From an uncultured delta proteobacterium (GTDB taxonomy: Bacteria; Desulfobacterota; Desulfomonilia; UBA1062): a stretch of 64,000 nucleotides of DNA. Position 1 is the stretch's first letter. The number at the start of each line of letters is the position of its first letter. Shown in pieces: positions 5,365-44,835 of the stretch. The notes beneath the pieces are model-generated. The model was given only the letters and a program-made list of their open reading frames with translations. It had not been told where the DNA came from and searched no databases. The position numbers and the translations under genes were made by a program. Location of the stretch: assembly GCA_963752595.1 (NCBI GenBank), contig CAVVYZ010000022.1:112043-176042 (forward strand). The letters are read 5' to 3'.

Positions 5365-5485
5365 TGATATGGCCGGTTATCGCTGAATATCTGCCTTTTA
5401 TATTCCCTAATGACCAGCAAATGCATCGGATCTTATTTTATTATCTATTTTTGACATTTATTGTGCATCCTTTTTAGATCCGGAT

Positions 5486-5587
5486 CATCAAAAATATATA
5501 AAAAGAGAAACAGACCTAAAGAAGCAAACATTTAACCTCCTCTTATAGGATGGCGCGTCCTATGCCCTAACCGCCATCCTTTTTTTT
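5486..5587 (+). ncRNA. Candidate small RNA (about 100 nt) ending in an anti-SD motif and an intrinsic terminator
   Basis: TTGACA at 5451 with a weak -10 near 5474. No ORF. AACCTCCTCTT then hairpin GGATGGCG/CGCCATCC plus a T-tract. The 3' module matches the one at 24291-24345 on the minus strand. Confidence 0.4.
5548..5587 (+). terminator. Rho-independent terminator
   Basis: 8-bp GC-rich stem GGATGGCG/CGCCATCC followed by T8. Confidence 0.75.
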
Positions 5588-23089: not shown

Positions 23090-24130
23090 CTACTCTTCGA
23101 AAACAACCGGGGCCTCTCCCTTTTTCAATGTCCTCACATACCCGATCACACTTGCAGATTCTTTCAGGCCTTTGAGTCGCAGAAGCACGTCCTCTGCATC
23201 TTTTTCAGCCACGATAAGCACCATGCCGATGCCCATGTTGAACGTCCGGTACATCTCAAGATCTTCGATCCTTCCGAGATCCTGGATAAACGTGAATATG
23301 GGGGGTACCTGCCAGGAGTTTTTCTTTATTACAACGCCGGTCCGCGCTGATAAAACCCTTGGGATATTATCGATGAACCCGCCGCCCGTGATATGGACGA
23401 TCCCTTTGATCTCAAACGCCCGGAGCAGGTTCAGAATGCTTTTTACATAGATTTTTGTCGGAGTCAGGAGCTCTTCTGCAAGGGTTTTGCCGATGTCTTC
23501 GACATAATCATCGATCTTCATCCGAGCCCTGTCGAAAAGGACCTTCCGCACCAGAGAGAAACCGTTGCTGTGAACACCTGAGGACTGCACCCCGATGACA
23601 ACGTCTTTTGCGGAGACCCTCGAACCGTCGATGATCTTATCGCTGTCGACTATTCCTACACCGAACCCGGCGATATCATATTCACCATCACTATAGATTC
23701 CCGGCATTTCGGCGGTTTCACCGCCGATCAGAGCGCAACCTGCCTCTTTGCACCCTTTGGCCATGCCGGTAACGATTGTTTTTGACCGCTCCACATCGAG
23801 CTTACCGGTCGCCAGATAATCAAGGAAGAAAAGCGGGGTCGCACCATCAACGACGATGTCGTTCACGACCATGGCCACGAGATCTATGCCGATAAATTCA
23901 TGATTGTCTGCCATAAGGGCGATCTTGATCTTCGTTCCTACCCCGTCGGTGGAAGAAACGAGAACCGGATCTTTGAAGTTTCCAACGTCCAGCTTGAATA
24001 AACCGGCAAATCCTCCGATCCCGCCAAGGACTTCAGGCCCGTATGTGGATTTGATGACGGATTTAATCCCTTTGATAAAGAGATTCTGCTTATCGATATC
24101 AACGCCAGCTTCTTTATATGTCAATGACAT
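23090..24130 (-). CDS. purM: Phosphoribosylformylglycinamidine cyclo-ligase
   Basis: YKEAGVDI, TDGVGTK, GGETAEMPG, HSNGFSL, TFNMGIG. Confidence 0.97.
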   Translation of the reverse strand: MSLTYKEAGVDIDKQNLFIKGIKSVIKSTYGPEVLGGIGGFAGLFKLDVGNFKDPVLVSSTDGVGTKIKIALMADNHEFIGIDLVAMVVNDIVVDGATPLFFLDYLATGKLDVERSKTIVTGMAKGCKEAGCALIGGETAEMPGIYSDGEYDIAGFGVGIVDSDKIIDGSRVSAKDVVIGVQSSGVHSNGFSLVRKVLFDRARMKIDDYVEDIGKTLAEELLTPTKIYVKSILNLLRAFEIKGIVHITGGGFIDNIPRVLSARTGVVIKKNSWQVPPIFTFIQDLGRIEDLEMYRTFNMGIGMVLIVAEKDAEDVLLRLKGLKESASVIGYVRTLKKGEAPVVFEE

Positions 24131-24290
24131 GGGTAACCCCCCTTACGCACATCTTCCTACTATAGTATCCTTCTTCTAGTCAATTATGCTTTCTGATGAA
24201 TCCGATTTTTCCTGATGGAAATTAGTTTTGGATTAAGGCAGATGAATCGCGGGCTCGATTCCGGGACTAGCCGCAGGCTGGTATTCTGAT

Positions 24291-24332
24291 AAAAAAATAG
24301 GGATGGCGCCTGGGCAAGGGAACGGCCATCCC
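24291..24332 (-). terminator. Rho-independent terminator
   Basis: Minus strand GGGATGGC...GCCATCCC followed by TATTTTTTT. Confidence 0.75.
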
Positions 24333-24446
24333 GAAGAGGAGGTTTTTTGCTATGAAGATCTTTTATCGATGAGACTGAAGGACGGTTACCTCCTTATTTC
24401 GGTTTCCTCCAGTCCGGATTATATCGCTTGATATCGATTCATATGC
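24291..24446 (-). ncRNA. Candidate sigma54-dependent structured small RNA (about 155 nt)
   Basis: Lies between a -24/-12 promoter and a terminator with no usable ORF. 10-bp stem GACUGGAGGA/UCCUUCAGUC with AAGGAGGU in the loop; outer UAUGAA/UUCAUA pairing; anti-SD ACCUCCU before the terminator. Confidence 0.5.
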
Positions 24447-24457
24447 CCACTCATTAT

Positions 24458-24472
24458 TCAATTGGCATGCCA
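24458..24472 (-). promoter_or_regulatory. sigma54 (-24/-12) promoter, divergent from the sensor kinase
   Basis: TGGCAT-GCCAA-TTGA versus consensus TGGCAC-N5-TTGC. Confidence 0.6.
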
Positions 24473-24569: not shown

Positions 24570-24618
24570 TGTATAATACCTATACAATCCAAGGATACAC
24601 ACGTATACAGAATATACA
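24570..24618. promoter_or_regulatory. Two tandem enhancer (UAS)-like palindromes
   Basis: TGTATA-N5-TATACA (24570-24586) and CGTATA-N5-TATACA (24602-24618), about 100-150 bp from the minus-strand sigma54 promoter. Confidence 0.65.
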
Positions 24619-24670: not shown

Positions 24671-24685
24671 TGGCATGAGATTTGT
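24671..24685 (+). promoter_or_regulatory. Possible sigma54 promoter for the two-component operon
   Basis: TGGCAT-GAGAT-TTGT, ending about 30 bp before ATG 24714. Confidence 0.45.
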
Positions 24686-24713: not shown

Positions 24714-26465
24714 ATGAAAGATAAGAGTACAGACCGGAATTGGATCCGCATGTCGCCCTGGGTCATCGTGGGTGCCTTTATCGTTTTGGTGCCGATCTTC
24801 GCCTTCATGACCGTGAAGACGATCAGAACCCAGCAGGATAATATGATCATGCTGCTTCGTGAGAAAGGCGACGCCCTCATCCGGTCTTTTGAAGCCGGCA
24901 CCAGGACGGGTATGGTGGGATTCAACTGGAGCTGGGTTCAGGTCCAGAGGCTTATCATGGAAACCGCAGAGCAGCCGGATATCCTTTACATACTCATTAC
25001 GGATGTACAGGGAAAGATCATTGCCCATAACCAGCCTATGCATATCGGAAAAACCCATGGGACAGGCCTCGATCTTACGGCTGTCGGCGATAAGATCCAG
25101 TCACGCCGGATAATAAGGTCCGATGGAAAGCCCATCTTCGAAGTCTACAGAAGGTTCGTTCCCTCAAGGGGAAGACTGCTTTCTCACAGCAGTCGTATCT
25201 TACCGGAAGAATGGTTCATCAATCATATATTCCCACAGGAATTCAAACAGCCGGCTCTGACGATATTTGTCGGGCTCGATATGGATCCCATCGTGAAAAC
25301 GACACGGGAAAACACCCTCCAGAGCATCCTCATAGCAGTTATACTCCTTTTGATAGGCTTTTCAGGGATTGTATCCATAATCATCGCCTACAACTACCGT
25401 ATTGCGCGGATGAGCCTTTCGAGGATCAAGGCCTTCTCGGATAACATTGTGGAAAACATCCCGGTAGGTCTTATTTTTATCGGTGAAAACCGTAAGCTCA
25501 TCACCATGAACAATGCTTCTGAAGATATGCTGAAGCTCTCCTCCCAGGACATACAGAATGAGCATGCAGAAGACATTCTTCCTCCTCAGATTAACGAGCT
25601 TTTCGATCAGGCGCTGAAGTCGCCGACCGTATTCATCAAAGAGATCGACATCCCGATCCAGGGAAAGAATATGCTGTTTGAAACCAGTACGAGCGTATTG
25701 TACGACGACAACAATATTTTTCTGGGATACATAATGCTCCTGAGGGACACCACGGAGATCCAGCACCTGAAGAAAGAAGTGTTGAGGAAGGAACGGCTCG
25801 CGTCTCTGGGAAGCCTTGCTGCCGGAGTCGCACATGAGATAAGGAATCCTTTAAGCTCTATCAAGGGGTTTGCAACGTATTTCAAGGAACGGTACCGTGA
25901 TGTGCCGGAAGACCAGAAAACCGCTGATATCATGATCAGAGAGGTTGAACGCCTCAACAGGGTCATCAGTCAGCTTCTGGAATTTGCCAGGCCGATGAAT
26001 GTGGTTCAGAAACAGGCAAGCGTGAAGGACACGATCCGTCATTCCATCGAGATGATAAAACATCAGGCCGATGCTAAGGAAATCGAGATCATTGCCGACA
26101 GCATCTCCAATGTGCCCCTTATCGCGAATATCGATCAGGATAAAATTACCCAGGTCCTGCTCAACGTCTATCTGAATGCGATAGAAGCGATGGACAGCAG
26201 GGGTGTTCTCGAAATATGGACAGAGCAGGACGAGGTAAATTCGAATATCATCGTGAATATCTCCGATACCGGCCAGGGGATACCGAAACAGGACCTGAGC
26301 AGGGTTTTTGATCCCTATTTCACCACGAAACAGTCAGGTACCGGCCTCGGCCTCGCCATTGTACACAAGATCATGGAGGCCCATGCAGGTCAGGTGAAAA
26401 TATCCAGCAGAGAAAGCCAGGGCACGACGGTGTCCATCATTTTGCCCTCCAGAGGAAAGGAATAA
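24714..26465 (+). CDS. Membrane sensor histidine kinase (ZraS/HydH-like)
   Basis: Two TM helices, periplasmic domain, PAS, AGVAHEIRNPL H-box, DTGQG/FDPYFTTK/GTGLGL. Confidence 0.92.
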   Translation: MKDKSTDRNWIRMSPWVIVGAFIVLVPIFAFMTVKTIRTQQDNMIMLLREKGDALIRSFEAGTRTGMVGFNWSWVQVQRLIMETAEQPDILYILITDVQGKIIAHNQPMHIGKTHGTGLDLTAVGDKIQSRRIIRSDGKPIFEVYRRFVPSRGRLLSHSSRILPEEWFINHIFPQEFKQPALTIFVGLDMDPIVKTTRENTLQSILIAVILLLIGFSGIVSIIIAYNYRIARMSLSRIKAFSDNIVENIPVGLIFIGENRKLITMNNASEDMLKLSSQDIQNEHAEDILPPQINELFDQALKSPTVFIKEIDIPIQGKNMLFETSTSVLYDDNNIFLGYIMLLRDTTEIQHLKKEVLRKERLASLGSLAAGVAHEIRNPLSSIKGFATYFKERYRDVPEDQKTADIMIREVERLNRVISQLLEFARPMNVVQKQASVKDTIRHSIEMIKHQADAKEIEIIADSISNVPLIANIDQDKITQVLLNVYLNAIEAMDSRGVLEIWTEQDEVNSNIIVNISDTGQGIPKQDLSRVFDPYFTTKQSGTGLGLAIVHKIMEAHAGQVKISSRESQGTTVSIILPSRGKE

Positions 26466-26466
26466 T

Positions 26467-27819
26467 ATGAATATAAGCAGGGACATTCTCGTCGTGGATG
26501 ATGACTTGGGTCATCGCACCATGCTCAAAACACTATTGTCCGGATGGGGCTACCACGTGACGGAGGCCGATGACGGTTCGAGCGCCATCGAAACAGTCCG
26601 GAACAAGCCGTTCGATCTTATCCTGATGGATATCCGTATGGTCAAGGTATCAGGTCTTGAGGCATTGAGCGTGATCAAAAGCATAAACCCTGCCATTCCC
26701 GTCATCATCATCACCGCCTTCTCATCGGTGGAGACAGCCATCGAAGCCATGAAAAAAGGTGCTTACGAGTATCTGACAAAACCGCTCGACTTCGAAGAGA
26801 TGCGCATGAAAATGGAGAAGGCCATGGATCATAACCGGCTCAAGCAGGAAAACCGCATCCTCAGAGAAATCATCGGGGAACACTTTGATGCCCGCAACAT
26901 CATCGGCAAGAGCCCTCTGATGATCCGCCTCCTCGAAACCACCTCAAAGGCTGCTTCGTCGGAAGCGACCGTTCTGATCATGGGCGAAAGCGGAACAGGC
27001 AAAGAAATGATAGCAGGAGCGATCCATTTCAACAGTTCAAGAAAAGACAACTCTTTCATAAAGCTCAACTGTGCAGCCATTTCCGAAGGTCTCCTGGAAT
27101 CGGAGCTGTTCGGACATGAAAAGGGTGCTTTTACCGGAGCTATCAGGAGGAGAGACGGACGGTTCAGCCAGGCACATCTCGGCACCTTGTTCCTGGACGA
27201 GATAAGCGAGATGTCCATGGCCATGCAGGCGAAGCTGCTCCGGGTAATCCAGGAAAAAGAGATGACCAGGGTCGGCGGAGAAGAGGTAATTTCTGTGGAT
27301 GTGAGGCTCATTGCAGCAACCAACCGGGATCTTCTCTCCCAGGTTCAGAAGGGAAATTTCAGGGAAGATCTCTACTACCGCCTCAATGTCATCACTTTGA
27401 AAGTTCCTCCGCTCAGACAGCGCCGGGAGGATATACCCCTCCTCGCAGAAAATTTCCTCAAGATGTTTTCCGAGAAGAATACAAAGCATATTAAAGGCTT
27501 CACACCTCAGGCGATGGACAGGATCATCAGGTATAACTGGCCCGGCAATGTCAGGGAGCTGATGAATACCGTTGAAAGTGCTGTGGTGCTTTCGAGTACG
27601 GATTACTTGAGCTTCGATGATCTGCCCCTGCTGCCCGATGAATTACCTGCCCAGCCGCCGGCAGGTCATTTCCCGACGGATCTGCCTCTGGATGAAGTCG
27701 AAAAGTCAACCATACTCAAAACTCTGGAGGTATCCCACGGGAATAAGAGCGAAGCTTCCCGGAGGCTCGGCATAACCCGCGCCACGCTGCATAAGAAGCT
27801 GAAGAAATACGGGGTATAA
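26467..27819 (+). CDS. sigma54-dependent response regulator (ZraR/NtrC-like)
   Basis: Receiver domain, GESGTGKE, GAFTGA, LFLDEI, WPGNVREL, Fis-type HTH. Confidence 0.95.
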   Translation: MNISRDILVVDDDLGHRTMLKTLLSGWGYHVTEADDGSSAIETVRNKPFDLILMDIRMVKVSGLEALSVIKSINPAIPVIIITAFSSVETAIEAMKKGAYEYLTKPLDFEEMRMKMEKAMDHNRLKQENRILREIIGEHFDARNIIGKSPLMIRLLETTSKAASSEATVLIMGESGTGKEMIAGAIHFNSSRKDNSFIKLNCAAISEGLLESELFGHEKGAFTGAIRRRDGRFSQAHLGTLFLDEISEMSMAMQAKLLRVIQEKEMTRVGGEEVISVDVRLIAATNRDLLSQVQKGNFREDLYYRLNVITLKVPPLRQRREDIPLLAENFLKMFSEKNTKHIKGFTPQAMDRIIRYNWPGNVRELMNTVESAVVLSSTDYLSFDDLPLLPDELPAQPPAGHFPTDLPLDEVEKSTILKTLEVSHGNKSEASRRLGITRATLHKKLKKYGV

Positions 27820-28474: not shown

Positions 28475-29424
28475 CTACAGACCAAGAATATATCCCTTGA
28501 ACACAAAAAGCAAAGGCAGCACGAGGAAGATAAAGATAAGGGTGTTCACTACGAAAAGGTTTGCAGTGAGCTTTGTATCCAGATGAAACAGCACTGAAGC
28601 AACCACCGAATAGATGGCTGCCGGCATGAATGATTCTAACCGGATGACCGATTCAATCTGCCTGTCGATCTCGAGGATGGCGAGAACCGCGGCTGTAAGA
28701 GCAGGTACTATCATGAACTTGATAAGGGAAAGGGTAATGTTTTCTCTCAAGAATAGGAAAATATTCGATACACTGAAATTCATGCCCATGCTGAAATAAT
28801 AGAGGGCTATCGAGATGAGCATCAACGCATCGATCGGGAAGAAAAAGAAGGCCTGGCCAGATGAAATGCCTTGAATATCAACCCCAGGAGCACGGCAAAA
28901 AGTGGCATGTTCTGAAGGTCGAATACATGACTCCATATCATCATGCCGTGCTGATCCTCCTGAAGTGATGATACTGACCTGGCGTAGGGGAAAATAACGG
29001 TGAACACAAAGAGCATGAAATAGGACAGGAAAAGAAATGCAAGGCCGAGCCCCCTCTCGCCAAGAAAGAGGTAGCAGAGGAAAGCACCCATGGTGAACCC
29101 ATGATTGGCTATGGATGAACTGATGAGGAAACTTGCCCGCGATTTTCCCTCCAAAGGCACAACAGCCATCATCATCCTGCCTGCAGCCATTCCTATGAGG
29201 ACGAGAAACAGGCCGGATATGGGGAGGATGATGACATCCCAGCTGAAATCAAGACCCCATATGCTCCAGAGCGCGATGCACGGCTCGATAAAGATGAGAT
29301 TGAACCTGATGAGCTTTCTTGAAGACAACCTGCCGGCGGGGATCCTGTTTTTGAGAATCATCCCTGCCACAAAGGGGAAGACGATCATGCATTGAAACAG
29401 GATAAATCGAGCATGAGCACTCAT
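28475..29424 (-). CDS. AEC (auxin efflux carrier) family transporter (frameshift near 28845)
   Basis: Two hydrophobic ORFs join at a T-run; ANHGFTMG, KFMIVP, MPAAI motifs. Confidence 0.75.
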
Positions 29425-44759: not shown

Positions 44760-44835
44760 GCCGAGGTAGCTCAGTAGGTAGAGCAGAGGACTGAAAATCC
44801 TCGTGTCGGCGGTTCAACTCCGTCCCTCGGCACCA
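44760..44835 (+). tRNA. tRNA-Phe (GAA)
   Basis: 76 nt. Acceptor stem GCCGAGG/CCTCGGC, anticodon loop CTGAAAA, TTCAA T-loop, encoded CCA. TTGACA at 44721. Confidence 0.97.

Follow-up and report, generated by a model that had tools for sequence, protein, structure and literature searches.

The 3′ end of a short predicted minus-strand transcript (about 60 nt, 24291-24348) encoded in the analysed window, i.e., the whole 64-kb stretch of DNA, constitutes a conserved module, which, judging from its sequence conservation, is a real and previously undescribed candidate family of small RNAs (sRNAs) of a known kind. It is probable that the module acts in trans as an anti-Shine-Dalgarno (anti-SD) sRNA, which is driven by sigma54 and a ZraSR-like two-component system and represents what is left of a deleted zraP-like gene. 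The original prediction had offered either a regulatory RNA with a CCUCC seed as the output of the two-component system, or a deleted zraP-like gene that left an orphan ribosome-binding site (RBS). The former is supported by the conserved 3′ 60 nt and by stand-alone copies of the module, the latter by the 21 of 36 loci that keep the gene and by the presence of a Shine-Dalgarno (SD) remnant; the two readings are not mutually exclusive, and both appear to hold. In the following, G000 is the genome of the window, other G-numbers refer to genomes, and L-numbers to fetched loci.

Organization of the Locus and the Predicted Transcript

The element is located between purM (23090..24130, minus strand) and a kinase-regulator pair (24714-27819, plus strand). 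The purM gene is the downstream neighbour on the strand of the RNA, and it is considered to lie outside the unit because in some relatives different genes come after the RNA. The predicted primary transcript is 156 nt long (24291..24446, minus strand), with its start placed from the spacing of the -24/-12 promoter. On the same strand, it harbors a 7-codon ORF (24419..24442), which has no RBS upstream and is not conserved, followed by a lineage-specific 10-bp hairpin round the deletion scar (24373..24414; arms 24405-24414 and 24373-24382, 22-nt loop), whose loop holds the orphan SD AAGGAGGU (24388..24395), a remnant of the zraP-like RBS. Next come a YYYAUAR motif (UUCAUAG, 24350..24356), which is a candidate processing site, and the anti-SD seed ACCUCCUCU (24335..24343), predicted to be single-stranded and preceded by a run of A. 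The transcript ends with a conserved terminal hairpin GGGAUGGC/GCCAUCCC (24300..24332), the large loop of which contains UGCCC at 24312-24316, and with a U tail (24291..24297), which forms part of an intrinsic terminator and is a candidate Hfq site. The promoter, the 7-codon ORF, the stem arms, the loop, the seed, and the terminator had all been placed correctly in the original prediction.

The sigma54 -24/-12 motif of the RNA is TGGCATGCCAATTGA (24458..24472, minus strand); each of the 35 ZraS-divergent loci that carry the RNA has a motif of this type in the corresponding position, with TTGA or TTGT as the -12 element in the genus of G000 and TTGC in others. A pattern scan of the 64-kb window found two sigma54 sites, namely this promoter and its partner TGGCATGAGATTTGT (24671..24685, plus strand) before the kinase-regulator operon; rpoN is present in G000. 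That operon encodes a ZraS-like sensor kinase (24714..26465, plus strand) and a ZraR-like sigma54 activator (26467..27819, plus strand). Among NCBIfam families, the kinase scores highest with ZraS (412 bits, cut-off 479) and the activator with ZraR (558 bits, cut-off 760), neither reaching its cut-off, and the system is, by its sequence, ZraSR-like, with orthology to enterobacterial ZraSR not proven. Two activator-like palindromes are found between the two promoters: the first (TGTATA-N5-TATAC[AG], 24602..24618), a predicted ZraR-like binding site, is 146 nt before the sigma54 motif, and the second (24570..24586) 114 nt before it. Palindromes at about -146 and -114 are kept in 13 of the 14 genomes in which the zraP-like gene is missing from the locus (gene-less), and at least one activator-like site is found in 13/14 gene-less and 20/21 gene-bearing genomes; these sites could equally serve the divergent zraSR promoter. 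A second sigma54-type RNA copy was observed in G112 (L103:1567-1706); neither a kinase gene nor activator sites were found in its vicinity.

The fold of the whole 156-nt RNA is no better than that of shuffled sequences (z -0.77; 47/200 shuffles equally good), and structure alone is, therefore, no argument for a functional RNA. The minimum-energy fold includes the UAUGAA/UUCAUA pairing, without the UCGAU/AUCGA pairing. The terminal hairpin was not called by a simple terminator scan of the region because its loop exceeds 8 nt. The seed-plus-stem pattern has two matches in the 64-kb window versus 0.00 in 100 shuffles. A scan of the element with the Rfam 15 covariance models, at both gathering and E-value thresholds, gave no match (best E 2.7), in agreement with the novelty that the original prediction had proposed to check; the best score over the element was that of folP (15 bits against a gathering cut-off of 99), and the families not matched include CpxQ, GlmY/Z, CsrB/RsmY, AbcR, and OxyS. 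The only Rfam match in the window is a tRNA gene at 44760-44832 (plus strand).

A Conserved 60-nt RNA Module

The conserved unit (24291-24348) corresponds to the 3′ end of the zraP-like gene and consists of an A-rich stretch, the invariant ACCUCCUC, the UGCCC-loop hairpin, and the U tail; in the consensus derived for the module, an A/U-rich stretch is followed by ACCUCCUCU, a hairpin of 8 bp whose loop (13-18 nt) holds UGCCC, and a U tail. A DNA search of 40 relatives located the module at the ZraS-divergent site in 11/11 same-genus genomes, and the segment common to these matches is the last 60-70 nt (24288-24358), outside the 10-bp stem. The comparison of the purM-kinase region with relatives, suggested in the original prediction, thus revealed conservation of the 3′ 60-70 nt and covariation in the terminal hairpin, and not conservation of the 10-bp stem. 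Covariance model R1 has matches in 44 of 51 family genomes and in none of 70 sister-family genomes. Two of the 44 matching genomes (genus g13) carry a divergent type without the UGCCC loop, giving 42/51 family genomes with the [U/A]GCCC-loop type of the module.

In an unfitted alignment of 17 sequences, double changes were observed in 5 of the 11 proposed pairs, and the covariation score (0.279), which kinship may inflate, was higher than that of all 500 shuffles and all slid controls. Among 64 distinct aligned model matches, pairing reaches 98.6% in the outer helix and only 67% in the inner helix of 3 bp. G-U pairs outnumber A-C combinations in the outer helix (15 versus 2 in the 64 distinct rows), and therefore the RNA strand is fixed. 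ACCUCCUC is present in 64/64 of these matches, a figure inflated by the fact that they were gathered with a seed-containing model, and the UGCCC loop in 57/64. Both ACCUCCUC and GCCC are kept in 15/15 gene-less rows, in which the leader length varies from 21 to 167 nt. Judging from these alignments, the unpaired seed is the most conserved part of the module, although it is not required for termination. Only 6 of the 229 terminator-like sites in the genome are preceded by ACCTCCTC, 4 of these 6 being copies of the module, so ACCTCCTC is not a generic terminator signature.

The range of the module was not extended beyond the group by a 150-genome sample of the phylum, in which two borderline matches outside the family (E 0.008 and 0.009) both lack the layout, or by an exact-pattern scan of the GTDB collection, which returned 76 loci. 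Nine of these loci have non-delta titles, and among them the model scored only a 1,143-bp contig, which is probably mis-binned. Among the top-listed literature on sRNAs, zraP, sigma factors, and the lineage (mainly open papers), the module was not found described, nor were a zraP 3′ UTR sRNA or any riboregulators of the lineage.

Several related arrangements were observed. In part of genus g1, a tandem second ACCUCCUC lies just upstream of the seed in the zraP-like 3′ UTR (L004, L006, L007, and L009). Anti-SD sequences followed by a hairpin and U residues, with other stems and no UGCCC loop, are found at L068:2020-2063, L098:2017-2060, L085-L088, and G000:C11:16240 and 5678, and these may represent additional sRNA families that share the seed. 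In G024, two identical RNA copies flank a run of N (L076:1894-2176); this duplication is probably a scaffolding artefact, and genome tallies count one copy.

Repeated Loss of the zraP-Like Gene

In the family, 36 ZraS-divergent loci could be scored, including that of G000; of these, 21 contain a zraP-like ORF, 14 are gene-less, and 1 (G023) drives an unrelated gene and lacks the element. The 21 gene-bearing loci have the order sigma54 promoter, zraP-like ORF, RNA element, while the 14 gene-less loci, that of G000 among them, have the promoter and the element without the ORF. Outside the 36, G101 is cut by a contig end, and the kinase query gave no match in 15 of 21 further family genomes searched. 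In G023 (L112), the gene opposite a related kinase, which has activator-like sites of the same kind, is apparently one for a flavin oxidoreductase and takes the place of zraP; no module was found in the 1.5 kb examined.

An ORF of 158-160 aa is located between the sigma54 motif and the element in 7/11 same-genus genomes. Three tested ORFs are PF13801 members and ZraP-like, and the best NCBIfam family for the zraP-like protein is ZraP (62 bits, below the cut-off of 200). A protein gene between promoter and terminator in relatives had been named in the original prediction as evidence against a regulatory RNA; such a gene does exist, and the RNA reading survives because conservation resides in the 3′ 60 nt, which are also found as stand-alone copies. 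A divergent sigma54-driven PF13801 gene is present in 21 relatives and lost in G000. In the 21 gene-bearing genomes, the element lies 22-137 nt 3′ of the zraP-like stop codon, between the stop and the shared terminator; this position within a 3′ UTR does not apply to G000, where the ORF is gone.

The gene-less leaders differ in what they retain. That of G013 has a 39-codon stub with an SD-like site, those of G000, G004, G009, and G001 have an orphan GGAGGU and no start codon, and the others have no remnant, the shortest (G011) leaving 21 nt before the seed. An SD-like remnant is, accordingly, found in 5/14 gene-less loci, and neither ORF nor SD in 9/14. On the kinase tree, the gene-less state requires five changes, at least three of them forced by well-supported branches; the trees are quick ones built from partial ZraS sequences (9/34 rows cover under half of the columns). 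In genus g1, the five loci without the gene form the sister group of the seven that have it, whereas the seven gene-less g14 loci are nested among gene-bearing ones of that genus. A single clade of these 12 gene-less g1 and g14 loci was rejected by the AU test (p-AU 1.7e-65), the tested group omitting G015 and G013, excluded once their long branches had been noticed, and with G023, G104, and the outgroups dropped. Based on these sequence comparisons, at least two independent events removed the coding part and left the sigma54 promoter and the activator sites in place, and G013 and G015 may represent further loss events. In G015, a zraP orthologue (L343, G015:C1:19690-20031), which is not accompanied by the RNA, and the RNA (L070) occupy different loci, and a sigma54 motif is present at both; by this evidence, gene and RNA appear to have been split apart there, the gene not being lost.

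Relocation of zraP in G000 was considered and rejected: the product of its other PF13801 gene shares 25% identity with the locus protein, and this gene has orthologues of its own in gene-bearing genomes. Among 30 of the 37 PF13801 matches, fetched from 18 genomes, a relocated orthologue was found only in G015 (43%). An assembly error as the cause of the missing ORF is unlikely, because G004 shares the 124-nt promoter-to-core spacing and 13 other genomes are without the ORF. Among the contigs of three DNA runs with small shares, none spans 24288-24455. Frame splits occur elsewhere: a membrane-transport gene at 28475-29424 of the window (minus strand) is broken into overlapping frames, and groEL (two copies), hrcA, and clpB are also split (G000:C22:87631-89131, C31:26951-28422, C30:79368-80135, and C9:229782-232137), which suggests indel errors in the G000 assembly.

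A YYYAUAR motif shortly before the seed is found in 19/21 gene-bearing and 2/14 gene-less loci (4/14 if two seed-abutting cases are included) and in 1/48 stand-alone rows. Judging from this distribution, which represents few independent lineages, the motif may behave as a processing signal that is required only inside an mRNA; we regard this as a lead.

Stand-Alone Copies of the Module

G000 holds four copies of the module, and the three outside the zra locus stand alone behind another promoter motif. One of them is found in the window, with the motif TGCATCC-N15-CATC at 5464..5489 (plus strand), the core at 5530..5587 (plus strand; 68.8 bits, E 2.8e-12), and a predicted transcript of about 5496-5587. 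The other two (C1:410921-411024 and C1:415456-415556) are each located behind the alternative motif, and most family genomes contain one to three such siblings. The motif, TG[AC]ATCC(T/A)TT-N-CATC, was derived from paralogues in relatives, and a genome scan with the motif alone uncovered the copy at 5464-5587 of the window that BLAST had missed. Using a pattern loosened after seeing the data (TG[AC]ATCC-N15/16-CATC type), a motif was found 12-40 nt before the core in 40/48 non-sigma54 rows; the eight rows without it comprise two contig ends and six divergent matches without the UGCCC loop. With a weight matrix, the three G000 copies rank first to third of 29 sites, the third being outside the training set. 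These apparent promoter-RNA-terminator units are the strongest argument for regarding the module as an RNA gene. Another sibling type was observed in genus g1, after a cspA gene (L020, L022, and L032).

The geometry of the sibling motif fits sigma32-like and ECF promoter types alike. G000 has three RpoH-like factors. No alternative motif was found upstream of dnaK, groESL, and hsp20-clpB in G000, nor, with a stricter pattern, upstream of its four ECF sigma genes; therefore, neither a canonical heat-shock regulon nor an autoregulated ECF regulon is shown. For comparison, sigma32 sites are given in the available text of PMC545781. The motif suggests an alternative sigma promoter and an uncharacterised alternative-sigma regulon. 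Further sites of the type TG[AC]ATC[CT]WTT-N12/13-CATC were recorded (G000:C30:5072, C14:82929, C1:397926 and 398026, C14:31659, and C30:74644; L194, L195, L199, and L200). Sites of this motif precede an rpoH-like gene with hsp20, a PAS protein, and what appear to be an rRNA operon leader and an operon for a 2-oxoacid:ferredoxin oxidoreductase, and the motif also occurs inside dnaG before rpoD in four genomes of three genera (G000, G004, G020, and G097).

The 10-bp Stem and Accessibility of the Seed

Taken on its own, the 10-bp hairpin is modest (z -2.1; 13/300 shuffles as good), and it is found in 2 of the 14 gene-less loci, i.e., in G000 and in G004, where one G-U is replaced by A-U and the length is still 10 bp; it is absent in the other 12. 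The original prediction had put forward the stem with its outer pairings, the AAGGAGGU loop as a possible CsrA site, and a loop-seed pairing as a pseudoknot or switch. As conserved features, the first and the last of these are not supported, the stem being found in 2/14 gene-less loci, and a loop-seed pairing may form in G000 alone; nor is the second, the SD-like remnant being present in 5/14 gene-less loci. With the stem in 2/14 loci and no downstream ORF in the unit, a conserved alternative pairing upstream of a regulated ORF was not found; nor were conserved GGA loops of the CsrB/RsmY type, the GGAGG remnant occurring in 5/14 gene-less loci and the conserved GGA being paired.

According to the folding predictions, the accessibility of the seed is 1.00 in G000 and 0.96 in G004, and it falls to 0.36 and 0.17, respectively, when the 3′ stem arm is barred from pairing. 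In G009 and G001, which have the orphan SD and no stem, the seed is predicted to be paired to the SD (accessibility 0.15 and 0.13), and in G013 it is partly trapped (0.35). The duplex of the seed with the orphan SD is predicted at -12.0 kcal/mol. Thus, the stem is likely to have arisen as a local remedy, hiding the orphan RBS and leaving the seed free, and its distribution indicates that it is neither the conserved core nor a conserved switch.

Comparison with Known Systems

CpxP and ZraP are related families, as Pfam matches to PF13801 and PF07813 also indicate. CpxQ is an sRNA from the cpxP 3′ UTR (PMC4817254, in its available text). Like CpxQ, the module is located in the 3′ UTR of a gene for a periplasmic chaperone of the Spy/CpxP/ZraP type, which is the divergent output of an envelope-type two-component system. 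Unlike CpxQ, to which it has no sequence match, it has a sigma54 promoter, a ZraR-like activator, an anti-SD seed, and stand-alone siblings, and its protein gene was repeatedly lost. According to the available text of PMC8825220, OxyS evolved from a peroxidase mRNA divergent from oxyR; here, too, a gene divergent from a regulator was deleted and the 3′ fragment stayed as an RNA under the ancestral promoter. That text deals with one replacement and low sequence conservation to the parent, whereas the module is fully formed in the 3′ UTRs of extant mRNAs, was freed by at least two losses, and shows graded intermediates (the 39-codon stub, the orphan RBS, and the 21-nt leader). By analogy, the origin of the module may be called CpxQ-like and its fate OxyS-like, although it belongs to neither of these families.

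AbcR1/AbcR2 and NfeR1 of rhizobia are sibling anti-SD sRNAs under LsrB and RpoH1 (PMC8844928, as far as its available text goes), which resemble the module and its siblings in carrying single-stranded anti-SD seeds under different regulators, and which act on many mRNAs. They differ in sequence and fold and in having two or three seeds instead of one, and none is described in that text as derived from a zraP-like 3′ UTR. CJnc230 (FlmE) of Campylobacter jejuni, as presented in the available part of PMC11187230, is likewise an anti-SD sRNA and is released by processing of an RpoN-dependent mRNA at its 3′ end; it belongs to a flagellar regulon and is processed by RNase III/Y, no sequence similarity was shown, and a gene-less form is not described in that part. 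Dv_sRNA2 of Desulfovibrio vulgaris is another sRNA targeted by a delta-proteobacterial response regulator, DVU0679 (PMC3333781, available text); it differs in lying downstream of the regulator gene and in having no known function there, a distinction drawn from the description and not from sequence.

How new sRNAs originate and enter regulons is an open question, for which OxyS is the main worked example of an mRNA becoming an sRNA. The present locus can be regarded as a replicated natural experiment, in which the same 3′ UTR RNA was freed at least twice and both ancestors and intermediates are extant, and its natural variants allow tests of orphan RBS masking and of processing-site loss in E. 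coli reporters. The results suggest that what a ZraSR-like system retains as its output can be the RNA rather than the chaperone, and zraP 3′ UTRs elsewhere are worth examining. A conserved candidate sRNA family and a promoter motif are also supplied for a lineage without riboregulators found in the literature search.

Proposed Function, Alternative Explanations and Targets

Sequence comparison points to an ancestral order of activator sites, sigma54 promoter, zraP-like ORF, and RNA module, from which the ORF was lost at least twice, with promoter, activator sites, and module retained. The neighbouring ZraSR-like system is predicted to switch on the 24291-24348 copy through the sigma54 promoter. 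Once transcribed, the module would be released from the mRNA, where one exists, through cleavage near the YYYAUAR motif, Hfq would bind the U tail, and the single-stranded ACCUCCUCU is likely to pair with RBSs and lower translation. In this way, many mRNAs with AGAGGAGG-type sites might be repressed, possibly in a role in stress. Pairing to RBSs is the likeliest action because the layout fits characterised anti-SD sRNAs and hfq is present in G000, as it is in 111/122 class genomes, which makes its presence not discriminating. In G000 and its sister, the deletion left the gene's own SD 45 nt upstream of the seed, and the 10-bp stem likely persists as it buries this remnant and frees the seed.

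A wider scheme is proposed tentatively, being slightly more doubtful than probable: the siblings would join two stress inputs, a ZraSR-like sigma54 system and an uncharacterised alternative sigma factor, on one seed, the two-component system would have become RNA-only in two to four independent lineages, and their leaders would have been repaired stepwise. The orphan RBS would at first trap the seed and then be hidden in a new hairpin, as in G000, or be deleted, and the processing motif would decay once the RNA need not be cut from an mRNA.

It is unlikely, if the best surviving of the alternatives, that the RNA is functional through a partner other than an RBS, for instance, a protein that binds the UGCCC loop, or an sRNA or GGAGG-rich RNA that it sponges. 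The loop is conserved almost like the seed (UGCCC in 57/64), no complement to it is evident at G000 gene starts, no conserved mRNA target emerged from the target tests, and csrA is present in G000; on the other hand, the GGA motifs available to CsrA sit in the non-conserved 5′ part or in a paired stem, and a single-stranded anti-SD with a U-tailed terminator is the layout of base-pairing sRNAs in the available texts of PMC8844928 and PMC11187230.

Somewhat less probable still is a pseudogene scar, in which the RNA is functionless and the sole reason for keeping the terminator is to prevent a still-decaying sigma54 promoter from reading through into purM. The deletion of a zraP-like gene and the orphan RBS are both real, purM is directly downstream on the same strand, the full 156-mer folds no better than shuffles, and the activator sites may persist for the divergent zraSR promoter alone. 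Termination, however, needs neither an invariant unpaired 8-mer nor an invariant loop, ACCTCCTC is not general among the terminators of G000, most genomes of the family contain the module as a stand-alone unit with a promoter motif of its own, and an RNA-facing sigma54 motif is found in 14/14 gene-less loci across deep branches.

A cis-acting element, whose 3′ anti-SD pairs with its own SD and limits ZraP synthesis, with a pseudoknot or switch in G000, is very unlikely. Such pairing is possible energetically (-12.0 kcal/mol) and predicted in the G009 and G001 folds, and CpxP levels are lowered by CpxQ according to the available text of PMC4817254, but the module persists without ORF or SD in 9/14 gene-less loci and as stand-alone copies, it pairs only weakly with the zraP start of the same genome in many cases (9/19 scorable genomes, -7.5 to -10.6 kcal/mol), and the switch stem-loop is found in 2/14 loci. 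That the opposite strand is the functional one, its hairpin, GAGGAGG, and ATG forming the leader of a small peptide such as a type I toxin, or that the element is a mobile repeat, is hardly credible: a plus-strand GAGGAGG does lie 8 nt before the ATG of a 6-codon ORF in the window, but an ATG within 30 nt is missing from 22 of 81 rows and the others give 1 to 98 residues at offsets of 3 to 27, no conserved small hydrophobic antisense ORF of a type I toxin-antitoxin system was found in the 81 rows, the promoters, U tail, and G-U pairs all favour the minus strand, and one to four copies per genome, in recurring neighbourhoods and each with a promoter motif before it, do not suit a mobile repeat.

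For the preferred reading, i.e., an sRNA that represses translation through its anti-SD seed, targets were sought in G000 and its relatives. The seed complements a common SD type, and genomes that lack the RNA have AAGAGGAGGT-ATG sites just as often. When 3,596 crude gene starts in G000 were ranked by duplex strength, no clear target set emerged, and no signal-peptide enrichment was found among genes with the extended complement compared with other AGGAGG genes (9/35 versus 67/308, p=0.67). In scoring with a heuristic signal-peptide classifier (four tests), signal-peptide genes scored slightly better for the zra-locus copy only (p=0.014; siblings 0.31-0.45). Of about 300 family matches to AAGAGGAGGT-ATG, 90 were fetched, and among the 70 proteins encoded behind them, a 217-aa membrane protein and acyl-CoA dehydrogenases recur (five each). 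The 217-aa membrane protein was rejected as a target, as AGAGGAGG is kept in only 7/29 scorable orthologous or paralogous starts. Its family, which has no Pfam match, is present in 47/52 family genomes, usually in two copies (L225:1516-2166; G000:C9:182999 and C1:9536-10162).
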